In this document: positions 11,176 to 46,380 of the stretch, piece after piece
Layout: every line of letters begins with the position of its first letter
How positions within the stretch are numbered: the stretch's first letter is position 1
Assembly: GCA_002269645.1 (NCBI GenBank)
Contig: NIVC01000628.1
Coordinates: 186,001 to 250,000 of the forward strand
DNA length: 64,000 nucleotides
From: Macrostomum lignano
Taxonomy: Eukaryota
Direction: 5' to 3'
Notes under the pieces: generated by a model
What the model saw: only the letters and a program-made list of their open reading frames with translations
What the model was told of the DNA's origin: nothing
Database searches by the model: none
Made by a program: the position numbers and the translations under genes

Positions 11176-11769
11176 TCTCACTCTGCACAAACACACGTCA
11201 AAGTACAATAACGATACGGCCACAAGAGCAGTCCAAGTGCAATGCCGCATATACGCGATAAAAAGAGTCCACAGGCGGCTCTGGATAAAGAAATGAAAAA
11301 GCGTAGAAAGCAAGTCTCGGTCCCTGTCAGGCTCATCCGGCTCGATGGACGGCATAAAATAGCGTATTTGCATAATAGCGTGGGGCCCGACATCGCTTAT
11401 CTTCATACATCCGCTGTCCCCTCACTCTCTCACCCTCTTCCCCCACTCTTGACCGGACAGAAAGGGACCGGGGGGGGGGTATTCGGCATGCAGTATGCAG
11501 TTTGCGCCAAGCAGACAGAAAACTAAACAGGGCCAAATTGTCTGCCGCATCGCCCAACACGATTAGTCATTAAGAAGTTCATGCGCATCAGGCGGACCGC
11601 ACGCATTTATCCAATGCTTTTGCTGCGAATTCAAGCGTGCGGACTGCAGGGAGGGCGGGATGCGACTGGGAAATTGCTGGGACAGCCCAGCCAGTAACTG
11701 TTGGAAAGGGGACGGCTGACTAATATTATAGCCGGCGTTGAGGAGTGAGAAGAAATTGCACCTCTCCAC

Positions 11770-14150
11770 CCACAGGCATTGCATACAGCACCCATAGACA
11801 TTGCATACAGCACCCATAGACATTGCATACAGCACCCATAGACATTGCATACAGCACCCACAGGCACTGCATACAGCACCCATAGATATTGCATACAGCA
11901 CCCACAGGCACTGCATACAGCACCCATAGACATTGCATACAGCACCCATAGACATTGCATACAGCACCCATAGACATTGCATACAGCACCCATAGACATT
12001 GCATACAGCACCCATAGACATTGCATACAGCACCCATAGACATTGCATACAGCACCCATAGACATTGCATACAGCACCCACAGGCACTGCATACAGCACC
12101 CATAGATATTGCATACAGCACCCACAGGCACTGCATACAGCACCCATAGACATTGCATACAGCACCCAGACATTGCATACAGCACCCATAGACATTGCAT
12201 ACAGCACCCATAGACATTGCATACAGCACCCATAGACATTGCATACAGCACCCATAGACATTGCATACAGCACCCATAGACATTGCATACAGCACCCACA
12301 GGCACTGCATACAGCACCCATAGATATTGCATACAGCACCCACAGGCACTGCATACAGCACCCATAGACATTGCATACAGCACCCATAGACATTGCATAC
12401 AGCACCCATAGACATTGCATACAGCACCCATAGACATTGCATACAGCACCCATAGACATTGCATACAGCACCCATAGACATTGCATACAGCACCCATAGA
12501 CATTGCATACAGCACCCATAGACATTGCATACAGCACCCATAGACATTGCATACAGCACCCACAGGCACTGCATACAGCACCCATAGATATTGCATACAG
12601 CACCCACAGGCACTGCATACAGCACCCATAGACATTGCATACAGCACCCATAGACATTGCATACAGCACCCATAGACATTGCATACAGCACCCATAGACA
12701 TTGCATACAGCACCCATAGACATTGCATACAGCACCCATAGACATTGCATACAGCACCCACAGGCACTGCATACAGCACCCATAGACATTGCATACAGCA
12801 CCCATAGACATTGCATACAGCACCCATAGACATTGCATACAGCACCCACAGGCACTGCATACAGCACCCATAGATATTGCATACAGCACCCACAGGCACT
12901 GCATACAGCACCCATAGACATTGCATACAGCACCCATAGACATTGCATACAGCACCCATAGACATTGCATACAGCACCCATAGACATTGCATACAGCACC
13001 CACAGGCATTGCATACAGCACCCATAGACATTGCATACAGCACCCATAGACATTGCATACAGCACCCATAGACATTGCATACAGCACCCATAGACATTGC
13101 ATACAGCACCCATAGACATTGCATACAGCACCCATAGACATTGCATACAGCACCCATAGACATTGCATACAGCACCCATAGACATTGCATACAGCACCCA
13201 TAGACATTGCATACAGCACCCACAGGCACTGCATACAGCACCCATAGATATTGCATACAGCACCCACAGGCACTGCATACAGCACCCATAGACATTGCAT
13301 ACAGCACCCATAGACATTGCATACAGCACCCATAGACATTGCATACAGCACCCATAGACATTGCATACAGCACCCATAGACATTGCATACAGCACCCATA
13401 GACATTGCATACAGCACCCACAGGCACTGCATACAGCACCCATAGACATTGCATACAGCACCCATAGACATTGCATACAGCACCCATAGACATTGCATAC
13501 AGCACCCACAGGCACTGCATACAGCACCCATAGATATTGCATACAGCACCCACAGGCACTGCATACAGCACCCATAGACATTGCATACAGCACCCATAGA
13601 CATTGCATACAGCACCCATAGACATTGCATACAGCACCCATAGACATTGCATACAGCACCCACAGGCATTGCATACAGCACCCATAGACATTGCATACAG
13701 CACCCATAGACATTGCATACAGCACCCATAGACATTGCATACAGCACCCATAGACATTGCATACAGCACCCATAGACATTGCATACAGCACCCATAGACA
13801 TTGCATACAGCACCCACAGGCATTGCATACAGCACCCACAGGCACTGCATACAGCACCCATAGACATTGCATACAGCACCCATAGACATTGCATACAGCA
13901 CCCATAGACATTGCATACAGCACCCACAGGCACTGCATACAGCACCCATAGACATTGCATACAGCACCCACAGGCACAGCATACAGCACCCATAGACATT
14001 GCATACAGCACCCACAGGCACTGCATACAGCACCCACAGGCATTGCATACAGCACCCACAGGCATTGCATACAGCACCCACAGGCACTGCATACAGCACC
14101 CACAGACACTGCATACAGCACCCACAGGCACTGCATACAGCACTCACAGG
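11770..14150. repeat. 22-bp satellite (cagcacccatagacattgcata), ~108 copies
   Basis: Period 22; open in all three minus-strand frames. Confidence 0.97.
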
Positions 14151-14559
14151 CACTGCAGCAGCCACACGTCGCACTAAGTTTTAGGAAGCCAATGCAGAAA
14201 GTGCAGTGCCATCACCCAGGCCCTCAAGACGCCGTCCCATCCCCAGACACGCAGGAATTTCCGAGCCCAATTGCCAGTCTGTATAGGAAAATATAATTTA
14301 ACCCCAGGGAAGATACACAGCATATAAAGTGGCATTTTAGCATTCAAGCATAGCATAGCTTAACAGCAAGGAGGGTGGCGGAGGAGAATGAGATCATCAT
14401 GTTTTTAATTCTGCCTTCAAGTCACTGGCTCTTGCCGCGTCCGCTATATAATCGTAAGTGCGTAGCTTAAGTGGCGCCGATAAAAGTACGGCTGCAAAAT
14501 ACTGGGCCGTGGATTTTTAACAGAAATGCACACGCTCTTCCAAAACGTCCCGTTCCACT

Positions 14560-34490: not shown

Positions 34491-35129
34491 TGGTCCCTCT
34501 TTCGTTCACTTATGTGCATCGAGTTAAATGCTTGTTCATTCTTAACCCCATATGCTCCTGAGGCTGCAAACCCCGAATAAGGAAAGGAAAATTTAAATTC
34601 AGCTACAGCTGGAGGTGTGGGACTGACCCAGATGTGAATTTACTGATCTCTGTAACTGAAATCACTCATCTCTCCAGCCAATTAAAAAATTAGTTTAATT
34701 AAAGTATTGAATGGTTGAAAGTGGTTATCAAATATACATATAATTTGTACTATGATCGTATTATTGTTTTATTATGGTTTAGCATACTAACAACGCTTCA
34801 CTTGAAAATGCATTGTTTAACGATGTTTCGGCAAATTTTACCATAGACTATGGTAAGAAACGAGGTTTTATTCGAAAAAAACAGTAGAAACCATACTAGC
34901 GCTTAGCAATATTCGTTTACTAGATGGTATTGCAATAATAACCAGTTCAAATTGTTACTACAAGCACAGCATGTTCTTGATCTCTACGTCTCCCTGATTT
35001 GGAACGTGCAATTCTCGAATTTTCCATTGAAATTCAGGAACACCCTTGCATCAGTAGTAATCTGCACAATCTCGGAAGTGTCTGAATTAGCAGTCCTGGC
35101 TCCACCGCTAGCTTCTGTTGCAATCACGG

Positions 35130-35722
35130 GCGCTATAGCCTCACTGTCAGCCTCGTCAGCAGCTTTGGCAGCTCCGTCGTTTGAAGCTTGACATCGGTAT
35201 TCGCATTAGATGTAGTTGCTAATGGTCGTTCCAGCGCTATACTTACGAAATCCGAAATGCGAGTTACCCGAATGCAATTATTAGCTGACGTTTTAGACAA
35301 ATCGCATACGTCACTTAGGTGACGCATAAAATTAGCTAGCCAATTAATGCCTCGAACTTGGTTGATAGAGAAACGCAGGTTGCCGCTTCCATCGTTGGCT
35401 AAGGGGTGTGGAAAAAATGATTAATCCTTTGTGTTCTCAGGTAGGAGATTGCAGTAGTAGACGACAAACTCTCGTTGCTGTCCATAGAGACGAGCTTGCT
35501 TTGCTATGTTGTTCTGAGCACGCGTCGGATCGGTCGATTGATTTTTTGTTGGCATATCCGGTAGGCTCAAATATGCTTGGCCATCAGCGTCTACTCCTTC
35601 TACCAAAGTACCCTTCTTCTTCAGATACTTCAGGTGCTCTTGGCCGCGTTTATCTAACCTATAGAGTAACATAAATATCACTTCATCCTGAAGACGCTCT
35701 GCTGTACTTCTGTCAAAGTAAC
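35130..35722 (-). pseudogene. Crypton A tyrosine recombinase, 3' part (stop codon, degenerate catalytic motifs)
   Basis: YFDRSTAERLQDEVIF...KRGQEHLKYL...PTKNQ...RGINWLANFM...NNCIRVT; continues the frame of the 42024+ part once the LTR element is removed. Confidence 0.7.
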
Positions 35723-35926
35723 TGTTGTGTCTTCTGTTTTTTAATGACAAATCAAATGAGCAAGTCTGGAACTTATAATGTTAAGTATAAGGTATCACCC
35801 CCATGGACTGATTTATCTGGCCCACATACAAGACTGAGGACTGCGTTGGGGTGATACCTTATACGTACGTTGCGCTGGGAAGCAAATCATTTTGTTTATG
35901 GTTCGGCTTGGCTTATAGCCACAGCA
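35723..35926 (-). repeat. 3' LTR (204 bp); central ~80 bp differs from the 5' LTR
   Basis: Preceded by a PPT; the terminal ~62-bp blocks on each side are near-identical to the 5' LTR. Confidence 0.88.
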
Positions 35927-35999
35927 TCTCCCCCTTTTATAAAAATAACGAACAGTTTAAGTCCCAAACTTGAGTGATCAAGGAAGTCTCAAAATAGTC

Positions 36000-37955
36000 A
36001 CTTTTTTTAATCCCCGGCATGGCCCAGCCAATAGTCTATGGCCGTCATTTAACTGGCCGGGCCAAGAAAAAAGTAATTTCTTCGACCGGGCCATTAAACG
36101 GCCTTTAGAAAATTTCAAATAAGGATAAGAAAACTTAATATATATTGGTTTATTATCGAATAACGCAAAACATACTGAACTGTTTTTAATAAACATGGCA
36201 AAACAACAAGACCTCAACAGCTGGCAGATACACTCGTACCTCACAAGAATTGCTACACGAAACTCTGAAGTCTACACGATATTCATTAGTCGAAATAGAT
36301 CACTACCTTGTTGTTGACTCCGTCAGCTTCTATTCTCATTCTCTTCTTTTCGGTTCCGGAACAGAAATTCCAACCTTCTCTAGCGCGACGACAGCCGTTT
36401 CCTTGGCGTCAGGAGCCACCAGGAGCGACTCTGGACCGTCCGCAGCCAGATCCACAGCCAGAACAGCTTCATTGACATCGGAACTCTTATGCCCGTCGAA
36501 TTCCCGGCAATGATGGCACTAGTACGACGTTGCACGCCAACAGACATGCCAATGTAGCGTTCAATGGCGCTGCTACTATGACCTGTGATACGAATGTTTT
36601 TTCAATAAAAGAAAAAATATTTAATATAAGATAATATTTTAATGTAAGAAAAGTAAAACTTTATGACCTGTGATCCAACAAATGTCCGCGCGTTTAATTC
36701 CAGCGTCGTGTAATCGGGTAGCAGTTGTCTTCTGCAAGCTTTGGTTGGTGTACCGTCCAGAATCTTCCGGCGCCACCTTAGACGTCAAGTTGGACACCAG
36801 TCCGGCCAAAGAATGTCGACCCATCGGCGTTTTCGTGAACCATCCACCAGACTTTCCCGGCGCCCAGAACCGTTTGGGCGACAAAAAGAGCGCTTGGTCA
36901 GAGTCCTCAGGTCGCTTTGCGATGTAAGCCTTGTAGACACACACGATACATCGCTCATGGCTATCAGAATTGAATGCACGGACGACCTTTGGATCCCGTC
37001 GCAACTCCTTCAGTCCGCCCTGGTGCGTCTTCGTCACAGAATTGTTCACGTACTTTAGACACTCGCTTCCATCGACGCAATCCAGTAGAATCTGCTTCTC
37101 AAATTGCAAATCTCTGAGCTCGGAACCACCACGCAAAGCAAAATGCTTGCCAACAAGCCACACAATCTCCAAGAAGTTCGGAGCCCCAGAGGCAGTCCTC
37201 GACAGAACACGGAATGGCTTCAGCTCGACGGACGGAGTCCGGCACATTTTCCATCCCTCGTTGAGAGCTTCATTAAAGCATCCAATGCTCGTCGACTCTC
37301 GCTAAATTCCGGTTCCTTCCAGAAACTCCGATCCTTCTTTAAGGTGTTTTGAACATAGTACTGGATCATAGAAAACAGGTCTTTTAACGTCGACGCGGTG
37401 TATCATTCACCTTCGTGGGTTCTCACTTCAAATACAAAAAACTTGAGCAGGTAGTTCAGATCGCCTTTGCTCATTTCTTCGCAACTCTTAATCACCATCA
37501 GGCCAGTTGTAGTTCCATCAGCCCAAGCAGTCTTCTTAGCCTCGTGCCATGCAGTAAAGACGCTCATAGCCCAATCGGCCTTTTTCCTCGTTGACGCAGG
37601 TGCACTTGCCAACAGCTCTCTCTCAATGTCTTCATTTGTGATCATCTTGAAGCGTTGGACTCCTCCGTTCTTCTCTTCGTAGAAGTCGAGCAGCTCCTCA
37701 GAAATAAAAAACTCCGACGGGTTTTGAGAAGCTCTATTTTCCATATCAATTGATTCAGTTTATTAATTGATTGATTTCGCCTTGCAGAATATCTTCACGG
37801 CCATATACACATTTTGGGGAGGGTCCCAGGCTGAACTATGCTCAAGATTAAATACGATACTGCCCCCCAAAAACTGCGCCTCGGCCAAGAAACGAGTCCT
37901 CAGCCAACTTCATGGCCAAAGAAACGTTTTGGGGGGTATTATCTTATACGTAAAT
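36000..37955 (-). mobile_element. Crypton-like element B nested between the integrase end and the PPT
   Basis: YR ORF remnants; hairpin at ~37850-37950; ~36005-36050 resembles the reverse complement of ~37800-37855. Ends are approximate. Confidence 0.6.
36335..37744 (-). pseudogene. Crypton B tyrosine recombinase (ZMYM/DUF3504-like), inactivated
   Basis: TRKKADWAMSVF...EVR, HFALRGGSELRDL, KTHQGG, TNQSLQ (canonical TNHSLR), ITGH|SSSAIERY; in-frame TGA at 37403 and a frameshift near 37180. Confidence 0.85.
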
Positions 37956-38163
37956 CACTCTTTGCTTGCTTGGCTTGCCGCGTGCTGCGCCGTGGCAATT
38001 CCTGTATAGCTGGCTTAAACGTATGGTCCACTCGGACTGACTCAGACTCAGAATCCATTTGCAGTTCCGAAATGCCATCGTCATCGTGCACATGCTTTCC
38101 ACCAGGGTTGCCATCGTTTTTACGCATCATTGGGTTTCCAATGCTGACATCCTTGTTCGAATC

Positions 38164-41121
38164 TCATTGATCGTCTCCCTGAGACTTCGGGTCTGAGCTT
38201 GTTCGTTGAAGCTGATCTCTGTGCACTTTCTGGAATCTTCCGTCTTCCAGCTTGACAATTGCGGTATTCCTTCCCAATGGATTGATCAGCCTGGCCTCGT
38301 GTGTTGACTTCTCCGTCTTGTACACTACGGTTTCACCAGGACTCCATCCAGCTGCTGACATCAAAGGTACACGCAGTTTTCTTCCCATCAGTAATTCTGC
38401 TAGAATAGAAGGTACCTGTCGATTGCGGCTTGGGAAAATCTATTTGCACTGACAGCTTTTTTATTGTACGAACAAATCGCTCAGTCAGACCGTTGCTAGC
38501 TGGGTGGTATGCTGGGGTCGTTACATGATCTCACCCGATTTGAGTCAACCAACCTTGTGTCTCTTGGCTAACAAAGCTTGATCCATTGTCGGACACCAGG
38601 ACTCTCGGTACCCCTAGCTGGGAGAATGTTCTTCTCAACCTCGAGATCACCGTAGCGGATGTCATGTCCCGTGTCACGTGCACCTCTGGATAGTTCGAAT
38701 GAGAATCAACCATGACGAGCAAATTATTGTCCTTCTATCGGACCCGCAAAATCGATGTGAATTCGATCCCAGGGGCCTTGTGGTGCTTGCCATGAAGTTC
38801 GGAAATTTCGATTTAGAGGCTTCGCCTTCTTGCATGTCAGACAACAACCAACTACACGCTCTACCGCCTTATCGACACCTGGCCACCAGAAGTACTCGCG
38901 CAATAGAGACTTAGTGCGTGTCATGCCTAGGTGTACACCGTGAGCTGCGTTCACTGCTTTATCTTGAAGTGCAACTGGCAACACTATCTTGGACCCACGA
39001 AGCACCAAGTCTCCCTCAGTTGATAGTTCTCCAGCCAGTGGTTTGTAGCTACCCATCTCACTGTTCTAGAACTGTCCAGTTTGAATTGCCTCTCGGAGAG
39101 TTCGCAGTTCGTGGCACTTCCTGGGCCAAAACCGAAAATCGGTCAGCTTGAGCAGATGACTTTCTCTGCTCAAGAGATGGATTGCACCAGTCGCGTGAGT
39201 TGGAGCCTCCATCGAAGCGTTTACAAACCTAGATAGTGCATCAGATCGCATCTCCACCAACTTCCGATATGTTATGCTGTAGTCGTAGCCGGACAGTAAA
39301 ATAGCCCATCTTTGCAGGCGCGCCGAAACCCTTTCTGGTAGCTGACTAGAGGGTCCGAACACGAAGGTCAGAGGACGGTGGTCAGTTACTAGCGAGAATT
39401 CTCTGCCACAAAGAAACCGGTGACATCGTCGAATGCCCCAGACAATCGCCAATGCTTCGCGTTCGATCTGTGAATATTCTCTTTTGCGCCGGTGACAACA
39501 ACTTGCTAATGAAGATTATGGGTCTGCCTTCCTGAGAGAGCACGCCACCAATGGCCACCTGCGAAGCGTCACATTCGATTTCCACTGTTTTCTTCGGATC
39601 GTACGAATGCAACATAGACTCAGTCGACAGTGCCATCTTGATCTTATTGAAAGCTTGTTCGTGCTTGTCTGTCTAAGTGAACTCGGCTCCTCTGCGTCTA
39701 AGCTGTGACAGGGGCTCAATGAGTTCTGCGAGGTTGCGAATAAATTTACCGCAGAAATTAACGAGGCCAAGAAACGATTCCTATTCCGGTAGATTTTTAG
39801 GGGCTGACATCTCCCTTAACGCGTGCACCTTCTCTTAATCTGGCTTCACTGTCCCTGACTCGAGAATGTGACCCAGAAAGCGGACCCGAGTCTGCATTAT
39901 CTAACATTTTTCCTCGTTTGCTGTCAAGTTGTGCTTGGCCAACCGTGCTCTAACTTCGGCTTCTCTGTCTCTGAGGTCTTCTTTGGTCACGCCGCCAATG
40001 AGAATATCATCGACATATGCTACTGGTCCAGAAATTCCTTGAATCACTTCTACAATGTAACGTTGGAAAATACTGGGGGCAGTCTTTAACCCAAAGACTA
40101 GACGGTTGTATCTGAAGTTCCCGAATGGTGTAGACATCACAGTGATATCCTTGGAAGAGTCGTCTAGGTGCACCTGGTTATATGCTTTCTCGAGATCCAG
40201 AATCGTGTAGTATTTGCAATTTGTCACTGCTGCGAATGCTTCTTCAACTGTCGGCAACGGGTAGCTATCCCGCTGTAGCTGTGGATTGACTGTCGTCTTA
40301 TAGTCGACACAGATCCTGAGACCGCCATTGGGTTCTTGCACAGTCACAATGGGTGACGCCCACTGCGAAAAGCTAACTTGCTCGATCACTCCGTCAGTCA
40401 CAAGCTTGTCGATCTCGCATTTCAGACGCTCGCGCAATGCGAATGGCACAGGCCTCGCTTTGATGTACTTGGGCACTGCGCCATCGACTAATCGGAACGG
40501 AACTTGCCTTGCCTTGAACGGAACTGAATCTTTCATCTCTGTATGTCCAATAGAGACGCATTCCGGATTGAGTTTGATGACATCTCGTCCGAGCAATGCA
40601 AAGTTGCGGTTTGAGCGGACTACTTGAAACGTAATCTTGATGTTTCTTCCTTTCCGTTCCGTGACGACAGGCAATGAACCCAACTGGTCGAATTTGTGTC
40701 CGTCGGTGTAGCCCACCAAAGTCGAGGTGCTACCTCGCAACTTCGGCTTTCCAAATTTACACCACAGCTTGCTGGACAGAACTGAAACCGAAGCTCCCGT
40801 GTCAATCTGACAGATTATGGATTGCATTTTGCCTTCTACTTGACATGCCAGCTTTACTGTAGAGCACGACGCTTCTCTGCCAGTGTCAGTGTGCAAAATG
40901 TCTCTTTGTGCAGAATCCTCAGCCACAAAGTTCTGTTGACTGGGTATGCTTGACCGACATGCCTTTTGAAAATGGTTTGGCTTACCGCATCTCTTGCAGG
41001 TTTTTCCCATAGCCGGACATGCTGTATTTGGATGCTGGTTGCCACCACAACGAGGGCACTTCTTGTCTCCTCTGGGTGGGATCGGCCTAGACAGTTTTGG
41101 CTTTGAGCTGCCGATTTTCAT
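38164..41121 (-). pseudogene. Gypsy pol (zinc knuckles, protease, RT, RNase H, integrase) with stops and frameshifts
   Basis: CxxCGKPNHxxxxC, IDTGASVS, WASPIV, YVDDILI, CDASQVAIG, H..HLG...C..C, IHIDFAGP, VSDNG. Confidence 0.92.
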
Positions 41122-41798
41122 GACCGTCCCTTTCGCTTTTGATGTGACGCATACGCCTCGGCTTCCGCCACAGCAGCCTTGAAGGTTAGCTCCTCAAAAT
41201 CTCGGATTAGCAGCTTTGCTATGATGACTTTGTCATTCAGTCCGCAGATGAATTGGTCCCGGAGCCGTTCCTCCTTGACCTTGTTGCTAAATGCACATTT
41301 ATCCGACGCTTTGAGCAGCCTCTCAGCGAATGCTCGAATGCCCTCTTTTGCGTCCTTCTTGGCATTTTGAAAGGCGTACCGTTCAGACAGGACATATGTT
41401 TTAGGCACCAGGATCTCCTTCAGCGCCTTGTTGAGCTCTTCGAAAGACATTGTGCTCGGTAATGTACACAGAGCCAGATGATCCGCCAGAGTGTCGTACA
41501 GACCAGCAGACAGACGCATGAGCAAAATCTGCGCCCTTTCTTCTTCTCCCCATTTGCAGAGATTGGCCGTAACTGTGAAGCGTTCCATCCATCGTGGAAG
41601 CGACTTTCCTTCCTCCAGCTTCTCAATGTCGATCATGTTGAGCATGTTGTTTCCGATCATTGGCTGGTGGAATTGTGCAGTTTGGCCGATTCCTTCCAGA
41701 CTCGAAGGCAGTGGCACTTTGCCATCCTTAGTCACCGTCTTTGCTGCAGACTTCACTGGCGATGCCATTTTCTCAGCTGCCGGTGTTGGTGGTGCCAT
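41118..41798 (-). pseudogene. Gypsy gag
   Basis: WMERF...LLMRLSAGLYDTL...VLSERYAF...ERLRDQFICGL; frameshifted relative to the downstream CCHC knuckles. Confidence 0.8.
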
Positions 41799-41815
41799 CC
41801 TGCTTGCGATGCCAC

Positions 41816-42023
41816 TGTTGTGTCTTCTGTTTTTTAATGACAAATCAAATGAGCAAGTCTGAAACTTAAAATGTTAAATTAACCAGCCGATCTTCGACTC
41901 TTGTCTTATTATTTATTTCTGCAAGCCTAGCTTGCTCTTGTTACGCGTAGATCGCTAAAGCGTACGGTGCGCTGGGAAGCAAATCATTTTGTTTATGGTT
42001 CGGCTTGGCTTATAGCCACAGCA
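41816..42023 (-). repeat. 5' LTR (208 bp)
   Basis: TG..CA termini; followed by PBS and the gag ATG at 41798. Confidence 0.88.
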
Positions 42024-42493
42024 GTATCTGCGAGGTCTTACTAGGTCACCTTCCTCGATTGGTGGATATTGTCTTCTGACAGAACCAGATCCAATATACT
42101 CTCGTACTTTGACAAGCAGCATTCGATTTGCAGCAGCAAATTCGTCTCCAGAAATTATGTTGACAGAGCGCTTGAGAACCAAGCAGAAATATCTCTGAAT
42201 GCCGGCATGCATGCAAACCAAGGAAGCAGGTGAGTAAACTCCACCGTCAACTTCTTCAAAGAGAAGTAATTAAAACGTAGAAACTCGTTTAGGATGGTCT
42301 CCGACATTGTCACAGGCGAAACTTCAGTTTGTCTTCCTAGAAACTCCACGAACGCTTTACCATGCTGGAACATCTGTTCTCGCGTAGTCTTGGCTAGCAA
42401 GTCGATTTCAACGCGATCTAGATCTATAATCGGCAAAACAGCATCTTCTGGTAGATCGGGTAGAGTAGTGTTCAGTAGCAGCTGGGTCATCAT
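42024..42493 (-). pseudogene. Crypton A tyrosine recombinase, 5' part (frameshifted)
   Basis: FLRFNYFSLKK / VDGGVYSPASLVCMHAGIQRY...EFAAANRML...PPIEEGDL resembles the N-terminal half of DUF3504/KCTD1-type YR. Confidence 0.7.
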
Positions 42494-43866
42494 TGGTAGG
42501 ATCTATAGGTAGTGAATAAAACTCATTAGATCAGCGTCATCAGCGTGGTCTTTTGCACTCAACATAGGAAGAAAATCCATTTCGTTGGCAGACACCGTTA
42601 AGGGAGTCGGTTGGCAAGTTTTTCCAATTTATTAGATGCGTTCTAGAGAAGAGTAGACAGTGTTCAACCAAATCAAGCTTATAAAAATCGAACCAAAGCC
42701 CTATGTGTTCTTCTCCTTTTTCACTCCATAGTCTATAGCACAGTTGTAGCGGTCTGATGTATGTCTATGGCCAAAATCTGCGCAGTCTGGAACGTTTCTG
42801 ATTTGCAGAGGCATCGTTAAACAATCGGTATTAAAACAACGCTTCAGCGTTAAACAATGCTTCTAGTCGAGTATGCTAAACGATATAGTAACAATAAGCT
42901 TATTCATATGGTACTAGAGGTAAACAATAAGCAAAATCACTAGTGGCTGTACTTCAAGACAGACAAGCAGTGGCTACGCCACTCGTGATTTTGCTTATTG
43001 TTTACCTCTTATAGTACCATACGAATAATCTACCATTGCTTGTCTATCTGTTTAATTAGGTTCTTCGATCGGGAGCTATTTTACTGTGTTTTTTAGTTCA
43101 CACCTCACTACATAGGAAAGCAAAGGTTTGCGCTGGATCAGACAGGTGAAAGTATATCTGGTACATATACCTGTGATTTATTGCGAGCAACGTGTTATCT
43201 AAAGCTGTTCCCTAGCTGAGAGGGTCTGGCTTGCCTCGGCCAATCACTGCACTCGAATGCTTCATTGGCCTGCTGTAGTACTCGTATATACATGTATTTC
43301 TTTCTAGCCCATATCGCAGCGCTTCGGTTTGCTTGTGTTAGCTGTTAAGAAAACATTTCGTAAAAGTATAGTTGAACCCGCGGCTTCGAACTGCAAAGTC
43401 ATCATGGTACTCTTGGGTGAGGCTGTTCGCGAGATCTGCCGTCAGGGCCTGTTCTGCAAGATGACCTCCGGGGAGCTGATGTGTAAGGAGGAATATTGCT
43501 GATATCTGAAATTTTTGGCAGCTATGCTTTGTAAAACTCAAGAAACTTTGTCACCGAAAGACAGAATCTTTCACAATATCGAAATTTCGCATAGTCGATA
43601 ATAGCATAATGATGCAATTTTTCACATGACAGACCTGCGCGGTCCCTTCAGCGCGATAAATTTCAACCTCGAAAGCTGGCAATTTTCAAAAAATACTATA
43701 ATTTGCTAGTCGTATTGAAAACTTGATACTGTAGAGTCTTGAAACTCAAATTCTGTTGCTAATATTAAGACATGGCTATGCACGTTGAACACTCGAATAC
43801 TCAAAACCTCGATTCGCAGCGACACGGGAGGAGCGAACCCTCACCGTCCAGCATCCGATCGTGCTG

Positions 43867-44249: not shown

Positions 44250-44975
44250 CAGTTCCTAAATGAACCACTGAACACAATGATGCGGTCCAGTTCCTAAATG
44301 AAACACTGAACACAATGATGCGGTCCAATTCCTAAATGAAACACTGAACACAATGATGCGGTCCAATTCCTAAATGAAACACTGAACACAATGATGCGGT
44401 CCAGTTCCTAAATAAACCACGGAACACAATGATGCTGTCCAGTTCCTAAATGAAACACTGAACACAATGATGCTGTCCAGTTCCTAAATGAAACACTGAA
44501 CACAATGATGCGGTCCAGTTCCTAAATGAAACACTGAACACAATGATGCGGTCCAGTTCCTAAATGAAACACTGAACACAATGATGCGGTCCAGTTCCTA
44601 AATGAAACACTGAACACAATGATGCGGTCCAGTTCCTAAATGAACCACTGAACACAATGATGCGGTCCAGTTCCTAAATGAAACACTGAACACAATGATG
44701 CGATCCAGTTCCTAAATGAACCACTGAACACAATGATGCGGTCCAGTTCCTAAATGAAACACTAAACACAATGATGCGGTCCAGTTCCTAAATCAAACAC
44801 TGAACACGATGATGCGGTCCAGTTCCTAAATGAACCACTGAACACAATGATGCGGTCCAGTTCCTAAATGAACCACTGAACACAATGATGCGGTCCAGTT
44901 CCTAAATAAACCACGGAACACAATGATGCTGTCCAGTTCCTAAATGAAACACTGAACACAATGATGCGGTCCAGT
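44250..44975. repeat. 38-bp satellite in GPCR intron 1
   Basis: aatgatgcggtccagttcctaaatgaaacactgaacac. Confidence 0.93.
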
Positions 44976-45195
44976 TTCTATCTTTCCATCCCTCAGATCC
45001 AGCTGCTTCAGCCACATCCTGCCCAACCTGAACAGCTCGGGTCCAGTTTCTATCTTTCCATCCCTCAGATCCAGCTGCTTCAGCCACATCCTGTCCAACC
45101 TGAACAGCTCGGGTCCAGTTTCTATCTTTCCATCCCTCAGATCCAGCTGCTTCAGCCACATCCTGTCCAACCTGAACAGCTCGGGTCCAGTTTCC
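44968..45195. repeat. 72-bp tandem triplication spanning the GPCR intron-1 acceptor
   Basis: cctcag|atcc exon starts at 44997, 45069 and 45141. Confidence 0.92.
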
Positions 45196-46126
45196 CAACT
45201 GTCGCACCCGTCGTCAAAGTCGACGCAACAGCCGCAGTTGCAGCAGTCGAATTTAAGCCATCTCGACGATGGCGTCAAAGTCACAGCCGCCGTAGGCGTG
45301 GCCGTTGCTCTCCACTGCCTGCTGATCGCAGTCGGCCTCGTGAGCAATTTGCTCGTGTCCGGGATGCTCATCCGTAGGCGCCAGTTCGCCAACGTGACCA
45401 ACCTGTTCGTCCTTGGCCTGTCCCTGTCGGACATCCTCATCTGCGGCCTGCTGATGCCTTCGCTGATGTACTACGACCTGTCCAGACGGGGCTATATCTC
45501 GGCCAGCCCGCCCGGCCGGCTCTACTGCCAGCTGCTGCTCACCTCGCTAAACGTGCCGATCTACGCCAGCTGCCTCATCATCCTGTGGATCGCGGTGGAT
45601 CGGCACCGCCTCATTTGCCAGCCGCATCGTCGCCGGATGTCCCGGCCGGTGGCCGTCGGCCTCCTGCTGCTGACCGGCTTGGTCAGCGCGCTCGTCCACT
45701 CGCCGACTGTGGCGTTCAACGCGCCGCCAGACGGCCGACGGAGCCAGTTCTGCGCCGAGCAGTGGCCAGACAAGCGGCTGCGGCTGGCCTACTCGATCGG
45801 CGCCTTCTGCCTGCAGTTCTGCACTCCGCTGCTCGTCACCGGGGCGCTGTACAGCCGCATCTACCGCCGCCTGCAGGTCCGGGCGGCCAACCGGCAGCGC
45901 CGGGAGACCCGGCGGAAGCGGCGCACCAATCGAATCCTCGTTGCCATAGTGATCAGCTTCGCCATCTTCTGGAGTCCCTGGTCGGTGTTCAACGTGGTGT
46001 CGGAGATCGAGCAGTTCAAGAGGCGGGCCGATCCGGTCGAAGTGGCCGCCTTCTTGGATTGCGTCAACATGACCCAGCCGTGGGACACCGTCAATGAGAA
46101 CCTGCGTACTCTCTTCGACTCTTACA
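45141..46126 (+). CDS. Class A GPCR, NPY/NPF/sNPF-receptor-like, TM1-TM6 exon (alternative in-frame starts at 44997 and 45069)
   Basis: VSN...NVTNLFVLGLSLSD, IAVDRH, FCAEQWP, RRTNRILVAIVISFAIFWSP; donor A|GTGAGT. Confidence 0.88.
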
Positions 46127-46380
46127 GTGAGTCTTTGGGTTGTAATCGGACAGCGAGAGTCTGTGGGTTGTACTCGGACAGTGACAGTCTGTGAATTTTA
46201 CTCGGACAGTGAGAGTCTGTGGGTTGCACTCGGACAGTGAGAGTCTGAATGTTGTACTCGGACAGTGAGAGTCTGAAGGTTGTACTCGGACAGTGACAGT
46301 CTGTGAATTGTACTCGGACAGTGAGAGTCTGTGAATTGTACTCGGACAGTCTGTGGCTTGGCTTGTTAGACTCGGACAGC
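46127..46380. repeat. 28-bp tandem repeat starting at the GPCR exon 2 donor
   Basis: tactcggacagtgagagtctgtgggttg units. Confidence 0.88.

Follow-up and report, generated by a model that had tools for sequence, protein, structure and literature searches.

The window, the 64,000-nucleotide stretch of the Macrostomum lignano contig NIVC01000628.1 that was analyzed, contains a single locus where three independent mobile elements, all of them decayed, are stacked: a Crypton whose tyrosine recombinase (YR) gene is split by a Gypsy retrotransposon, which in turn is interrupted by a second Crypton. We estimate the probability that this region is such a stack, most likely formed by successive insertions, at about 93%. 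The nesting has an ordinary cause, and a new hybrid class of elements is absent. The label "independent" may overstate the randomness of the stack, given the excess of Cryptons in this Gypsy family over the background. All three layers are broken by stop codons and frameshifts.

Structure of the locus

The outer Crypton (34763..43038, minus strand), whose ends were determined from inverted repeats and from the analysis of the hairpins, has a broken YR gene and a fold-back left end (42897..43031, minus strand) identified by inverted repeats and folding. The Gypsy element within it is also on the minus strand, and the order from the 5' to the 3' long terminal repeat (LTR) given in the preliminary description is present in the sequence according to LTR comparison, Pfam searches and frame reading. 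The 5' LTR of 208 nt (41816..42023) is followed by the interior (37950..41815; Pfam and frames) with the primer binding site (PBS) position, gag, a zinc knuckle, the protease (PR), reverse transcriptase (RT), RNase H (RH) and DDE integrase (IN) domains. Next come the inner Crypton (36007..37949, minus strand; 1.94 kb, GTATAAG...GGGGATTAA), recognized by the Pfam domain DUF3504 and by lone copies elsewhere, with a left end (37830..37949), then the Gypsy 3' untranslated stretch with the polypurine tract (PPT; 35927..36006), which directly joins the integrase end in nine empty-site loci, and finally the 3' LTR of 204 nt (35723..35926), recognized by comparison with the 5' LTR. Inside the 3' LTR, genome matches identified an 80-nt snap-back fragment on the plus strand (35785..35864), part of the left end of a sister Crypton family.

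The flanking 5-mers reported earlier, GATAC (5' copy, 42024..42028) and GTTAC (3' copy, 35718..35722), both read on the minus strand, were recovered in the window, and both sister copies of the locus (n=2) have GATAC on either side. The claim that removal of the Gypsy element restores the outer YR gene held as well: in all seven loci examined, relatives of the outer family are uninterrupted at this site and have one such 5-mer.

The composite could have been produced by misassembly, as the genome is repeat-rich with duplicated loci and sequencing may suffer at long hairpins. However, the identical structure is found on three contigs with 2–3% independent differences, the target site duplication (TSD) and the element ends are clean, and 30 of 30 bins of the stretch are covered in four of four public runs, although the whole stretch is in no single piece. 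An assembly artefact is thus very improbable.

The Gypsy element has the features of Ty3/Gypsy retrotransposons: direct LTRs of the TG...CA type, a PPT preceding the 3' LTR and a 5-bp TSD, within the 4–6 bp typical of this group. A TGG-type PBS position lies immediately after the 5' LTR and the TGG-start motif is kept there in other copies; no tRNA gene was found within the 64-kb window. Pfam matches include RVT_1 (E=1.4e-21), aspartyl protease, RT_RNaseH and Integrase_H2C2, and the domain order is PR-RT-RH-IN with a zinc finger plus the DDE integrase, as in Ty3/Gypsy. Several stops and frameshifts disrupt pol, one of each falling in the integrase, whose core D, D and E residues are legible by frame reading. 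The interior is 91–93% identical to other genomic copies, and the 5' LTR had 41 genome matches (best 40 of 44 candidates scored). According to LTR searches, the family occupies at least 14 sites that differ in their flanking 5-mers, and at 11 of them the 5-mer is duplicated at both ends; the family also leaves solo LTRs.

The outer Crypton, with its YR ORF and interspersed copies as in known Cryptons, has relatives at more than 70 genomic places (88 matches; best 40 of 70 candidates scored). Its relative P0011 (51% identity) gave weak matches to QRICH1 and phage integrase, and neighbours of P0011 are named "Tyr recombinase domain" in UniRef. No match of the outer YR bore the name KCTD1, the type suggested for it earlier. 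The closest named proteins are M. lignano YR-domain proteins (43–50% identity), and the sole match in a sequence search of the PDB was again QRICH1 (weak, E=0.0018). Relatives of the inner and outer YRs are only 23% identical. Two YR queries yielded 490 and 858 first-look candidates in the genome.

The recombinase block is a separate Crypton

The preliminary description left two possibilities, a Crypton that jumped into the retroelement, which it favoured, or a Gypsy lineage carrying a YR in an env-like slot as a new chimeric class. The inner block matches DUF3504 (PF12012, E=1.9e-16 for 36642–37301), and its DUF3504 YR is the only ORF, with no RT, as expected of a Crypton; its relative L152 (57% identity) matches PF12012, PF25561 and, weakly, PF00589. 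The block also occurs alone at six unrelated sites (88–96% identity), where all copies start and stop at the same termini, and its own ends, suspected earlier, are thereby established. As in other Cryptons, the copies are interspersed and have discrete ends, no terminal inverted repeats (TIRs) and no TSD. A YR does lie between the integrase and the PPT, as had been stated, but it does not simply follow the integrase: the block sits in the last integrase codons, which it interrupts, so that the supposed env-like slot is not the place of insertion. The target was not duplicated, and about 20 nt adjoining the junction are unlike all nine empty-site copies.

A genome search with the whole unit gave 84 matches (best 40 of 184 candidates scored), and the only three full-length ones among these best 40 share their flanks at 91–98%; because the flanks are common to all, the three copies represent one locus. 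No second site of the composite was found among the 40 best of the 184 candidates. Counting Gypsy copies with and without the block, as had been suggested, gave this one locus against nine of nine other loci that cover the integrase end (five independent sites), in all of which the integrase runs straight into the 3' untranslated region. Contigs from the public runs join the Gypsy element without the YR block in two of four runs and the outer element without Gypsy in three of four, joints that may derive from other copies.

That a Gypsy lineage captured a YR and retrotransposes with it could be argued from the enclosure of the block by LTRs, PBS position and PPT, all on one strand, and from the three assembled copies. 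These copies, however, are one locus; the block is missing from every other informative Gypsy locus, carries Crypton termini of its own, exists as a solitary element elsewhere and breaks into the integrase; and the YR is broken in all three copies by stops and frameshifts and has NQSLQK or worse at the second catalytic Arg. In the window this Arg is lost (NQSLQK), whereas seven relatives have NQSLRK. We therefore reject the chimeric class, to which we give hardly any credence, because of the single locus among the best 40 of 184 candidates, the empty Gypsy loci, the separable YR element and the uninterrupted reading of the outer family; the favoured alternative, a Crypton that jumped into the retroelement, agrees with the element's own ends, its six lone sites and the nine empty Gypsy loci. 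Of the catalytic residues, relatives in the inner family retain both Arg, the other His and the Tyr, but the first His is replaced by Gln; this Gln in place of the His of H-x-x-R is found even in open ORFs of 478 aa. Crypton YRs with an open frame include those at L199:5728-7182 and L152:802-2238.

Probable order of insertions

The stack was probably built in the order outer Crypton, Gypsy element, LTR patch and most likely inner Crypton, followed by duplication of the locus. The Gypsy element entered the outer YR gene with a 5-bp target duplication, as is usual for DDE integrases, presumably by means of its own integrase, and the YR would take no part in its movement. In the patch, about 84 nt in the middle of the 3' LTR were swapped for the 80-nt hairpin fragment of another Crypton family (43 genome matches; best 40 of 47 candidates scored). 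The end motif of this fragment has 79 exact matches, compared with 0 for a reversed control, and its repeat family has Crypton-type ends. As LTRs are produced as twins by reverse transcription and the change affects just one of them, the patch followed the Gypsy integration. The inner Crypton most likely arrived later as well, because no parent Gypsy copy with an inner Crypton was found. The two LTRs differ at 4–5 of 126 shared nt and the three copies of the locus, 97–98% identical, differ from each other by 2–3%; therefore all insertions predate the duplication of the locus.

As has been proposed for Cryptons, the YR of these elements would recombine a short core at the element end with a target that matches it loosely. 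In a third Crypton family AATG follows all four right ends. Crypton insertion at a short core without duplication is in line with the donor-motif model for Chlamydomonas, as given in the accessible part of PMC9977147.

Distribution of insertions

The YR–Gypsy–YR nesting had been taken as a hint of targeting between these families. For targeting of Cryptons by Gypsy this was not borne out: only one of 14 Gypsy sites, that of the window, lies in a YR gene, as judged from flanks of up to 1.45 kb, with three of the 14 sites seen from one side only. For targeting of Gypsy by Cryptons there is an excess of four insertions at two sites, but a preference specific to Gypsy is not established by it.

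The four Crypton insertions in the Gypsy family belong to four different families and lie at two of 14 sites, three of them in LTRs. Apart from the window, a Gypsy copy on C102 and C46 has a 336-bp non-autonomous Crypton in the 3' LTR, and the C102 version only has an open-frame Crypton of the third family (484 aa) in the 5' LTR. A 43-nt deletion in the 5' LTR on C46 was considered as an excision scar and dismissed, as C102 has the same deletion beside the insertion.

Preferential insertion of Cryptons into this Gypsy family or into places already holding Cryptons could explain these numbers. The four insertions fall in about 29 kb of Gypsy sequence, versus two YR fragments and no match to the end library in 531,383 bp of background (54 fixed-position stretches, the first 20 contigs taken from earlier match lists, and a 13-entry end library). 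This background count is, however, small and misses families outside the end library, while non-autonomous derivatives are abundant. The window, moreover, was picked for its nesting; if its copy is left out, two insertions in about 25 kb remain, with P of about 0.01–0.07 if they are independent and 0.1–0.3 if they are one cluster, assuming background counts of 2–8. Genome-wide, 43 of 281 YR places lie within 20 kb of a second one, compared with 4.1 expected, an about tenfold clustering (based on 285 of 300 listed rows, the other 15 being second pieces of places already counted). This favours directed nesting into Crypton-holding places, but the same Crypton–Crypton clustering accounts for the excess with no Gypsy-specific step needed. 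The Gypsy LTR is A+T-rich (61% vs 54%), and AA or TTAA, judged by eye, often ends the left flanks of Cryptons; on the other hand, Gypsy is absent from the flank in 34 of 39 left-end rows, and sisters of the C102 LTR element, 98–99% identical, lie in other DNA (3/3). Directed nesting thus seems unlikely to us. A weak local preference of Cryptons is possible; one specific to Gypsy is not shown by these counts.

Fold-back ends of Cryptons

In complete Crypton copies the left end is a fold-back with a long, imperfect stem. The computed energy is −57.8 kcal/mol (z=−12.8) for L152 and −50 kcal/mol (z=−14.3; 0/200 shuffles) for the corresponding end of the outer Crypton. The apex of the latter is GC-GTA-GC, with a short apex insertion in the window copy and the complete form in L056, L058, L059 and L060. 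The L150/L152 family, related to the inner Crypton, has a complete fold-back as well; in the inner Crypton itself the outer arm reaches a GCA apex, the inner arm is deleted to the stem base, and the sequence beyond the base is complementary to the right end, whose core in this family is ATTAA.

Two complete fold-backs were first found without any G·A requirement. A search of 109 YR-oriented loci for the motif stem-GA-stem-GNA-stem-GA-stem revealed 18 loci from five families that have it upstream of the YR on the coding strand, with differing but complementary stem letters. Three matches were on the other strand (one short and two downstream of the YR, probably in neighbouring elements), and 91 loci had no complete motif, the left end being broken or outside the fetched flank. 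The background was one match in 1,062,766 nt. The stems are 50–70 bp long in the five families, whose YR relatives are 23–24% identical. Six hairpins contain 26 G·A, one T·C, eight G·T and two A·C mismatches; as 12 of the G·A mismatches were forced by the search pattern, 14 to 1 of G·A to T·C are left, in counts that are non-independent since the families are related. The stretch inside the fold-back pairs with the right end at 16 of 16 positions in L263 (including two G·T), at 20 of 23 in the inner element of the window (including four G·T) and at 21 of 25 in L058 (no G·T).

About 20 of 50 left-end rows, counted by eye with queries that favoured the outer arm, stop at the apex, and the element on C102 begins at the apex with no target lost. 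Inversion of the hairpin loop (flip/flop) was considered and then abandoned once complete fold-backs were found, because the forms proved to derive from a single long imperfect stem by differing deletions, in some of them together with correction of one arm to the sequence of the other.

The simplest reading, by analogy with integron attC sites, suggests that the fold-back is needed on one DNA strand. The strand-asymmetric fold with conserved unpaired features that an attC-like substrate requires is present in these sequences. Animal Cryptons might accordingly move as a folded single strand, as a eukaryotic counterpart of attC recombination, a proposal drawn from sequence that we hold tentatively, at somewhat less than even odds. 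In such a process the recombinase-coding strand would circularize, and the right end, core and outer arm would pair with the inner arm and the subterminal stretch, giving a GNA-capped stem that contains tandem G·A pairs and, beside the core, a bulge of 2 nt. The YR would then swap a single strand with a target of loose similarity, and the insertion would be completed by replication. If true, the folded-strand model would account for rising copy numbers, loose target choice, copies truncated at the apex and fragments consisting of an end only, among them the LTR patch. Among five joints of the L263 element in contigs of the four runs there was no end-to-end circle joint; contigs drop rare molecules.

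The fold-backs may instead act as duplex DNA, in the form of a binding array prone to cruciforms, or as an RNA hairpin, the apex breaks arising after insertion. Computed energies barely differ between the strands (1–6 kcal/mol), and in unguided alignments the inner stretch matched the right end better than shuffles did in only two of six cases and equally well in two. Long palindromes are known to delete near the centre, and tandem G·A pairs are stable in RNA as well as in DNA. A double-stranded site, however, does not need the excess of G·A over its strand mirror T·C (26 to 1, or 14 to 1 unforced), C-GNA-G triloops are a stable motif specific to DNA, and the inner stretch finds its pairing partner 2 kb away, at the opposite terminus. 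We regard the duplex or RNA explanation as a contender that falls somewhat short of an even chance.

Comparison with known systems

Nested insertions of transposable elements are routine, and the locus as such matters little. The fold-back found as a by-product of this analysis could matter for understanding how Cryptons transpose and multiply.

The window element shares with DIRS, Ngaro and VIPER elements, as far as they are described in the available text of PMC13465315, an RT and a YR within a few kb on one strand. It differs from them in the DDE integrase, direct LTRs, 5-bp TSD and separable DUF3504 YR; neither a YR replacing the DDE integrase nor inverted terminal with internal complementary repeats (ITR/ICR) or split direct repeats were found here. 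According to PMC3212892, the YRs of DIRS and Ngaro do not match DUF3504. With Ty3/Gypsy the element shares the order LTR-gag-PR-RT-RH-IN-PPT-LTR, with a putative PBS after the 5' LTR, the 5-bp TSD and the solo LTRs; the family does not differ from this group, and the window copy bears two Crypton insertions.

With the CryptonA type, as portrayed in the sections of PMC3212892 available to us, the Cryptons share a single YR ORF with DUF3504/QRICH1 similarity, the lack of an RT, of TIRs and of target duplication, many non-autonomous derivatives and nested foreign transposable elements, which had been published there (section 8, Table 2). They differ in that five families here have a left-end fold-back plus a subterminal stretch complementary to the right end, and in the H-x-x-R of the inner family the His is replaced by Gln. 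The same sections state that no terminal repeats were found in animal Cryptons (Kojima & Jurka 2011); for some families the accessible text of PMC13465315 gives no description of repeats, and the available part of PMC5753468 notes terminal similarity of salmon Cryptons and Eulor5/6 with no description there of the fold. In the literature searched we found neither a described Crypton fold-back nor a Gypsy–YR chimera; Repbase/Dfam, the supplement of PMC3212892 and Fig. 1c of PMC5753468 may hold such ends.

CryptonF-1_cRei of Chlamydomonas, in the accessible part of PMC9977147, likewise inserts through a short terminal motif matched to a similar target, without duplication, but it belongs to another Crypton group and the target match is looser here. 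Its copy number rises despite excision and its mode was called complex there; the fold-back model would address this gain. Circular Crypton intermediates have been hypothesized, according to the available text of bioRxiv 10.64898/2026.09.21.753150.

Integron attC sites, as presented in the accessible part of PMC3458562, differ from the Crypton fold-back, which is predicted from sequence, in that they have no GNA-capped stem of 50–70 bp and are not joined element ends. The shared features are a YR substrate, putative in the case of Cryptons, that folds from a single strand and leaves bases close to the core unpaired; as a working analogy, exchange of one strand followed by resolution through replication would copy the element. 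The open-frame, near-identical Crypton copies of the M. lignano genome, with their defined fold-back, make this single-strand model directly testable.

Clustering and nesting of Cryptons

Cryptons of different families lie less than 20 kb apart about ten times more often than a uniform distribution predicts; contigs with such clusters in the M. lignano genome (G000) are C794, C1799, C3526, C150, C35 and 13 others. Another copy of the window's Gypsy family, represented by sister loci on contigs C102 and C46, also carries Cryptons. Its 5' LTR on C102 hosts a Crypton of a third family with an open frame of 484 aa (L199:5512-7493), the first base of which lies exactly at the hairpin apex, and its 3' LTR hosts a 336-bp non-autonomous Crypton (L006:5748-6083, also L007). 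The sister locus on C46 is free of the third-family Crypton. Three further copies of this Crypton, found elsewhere in the genome, are 98-99% identical, which suggests recent activity.

Other retroelement sequences are inserted in these families too. A relative of the outer Crypton contains a reverse transcriptase frame (L051:1608-3005; Pfam RVT_1, E=6.4e-14), which, judging by its motifs, we take to be DIRS/Ngaro-like, and a further copy of the window's Gypsy family contains a fragment of a different retroelement (L205:2800-6250) with an integrase end and what is presumably a DnaJ/chromodomain-like frame. In the window, a presumed host gene lies near the nest, a 409-aa frame on the plus strand (44965-46194) that by its motifs resembles an exon of a rhodopsin-type peptide GPCR.

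The inner tyrosine recombinase

At its TGH motif the inner recombinase is interrupted by some 70 nt of A+T-rich sequence in which a 13-mer recurs (window 36590-36660) and which may be an intron or an insertion; the same interruption is seen at loci L014 and L015. In the wider family (L146, L150, L152, L154, L155) Gln replaces His in the H-x-x-R motif, even in open frames of 400-478 aa.

Motifs at Crypton ends

The 8-mer CCATAGAC occurs close to the ends in all Crypton families seen (window 34841, 36034 and 42763; also L006 and L199). In the genomic background (54 stretches, 531,383 bp) it was counted 51 times, versus 26 for the reversed control. It is possibly a binding motif common to Crypton families.

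The same 8-mer is included in the unit of a 22-bp satellite with 109 copies (window 11767-14157). Tandem arrays on contigs C578 (238794-239303; L122-L129) and C2296 (127705-128447) have one Crypton left-end motif in every unit of about 60 bp, and the C578 array adjoins a Crypton outer arm extending to the apex.
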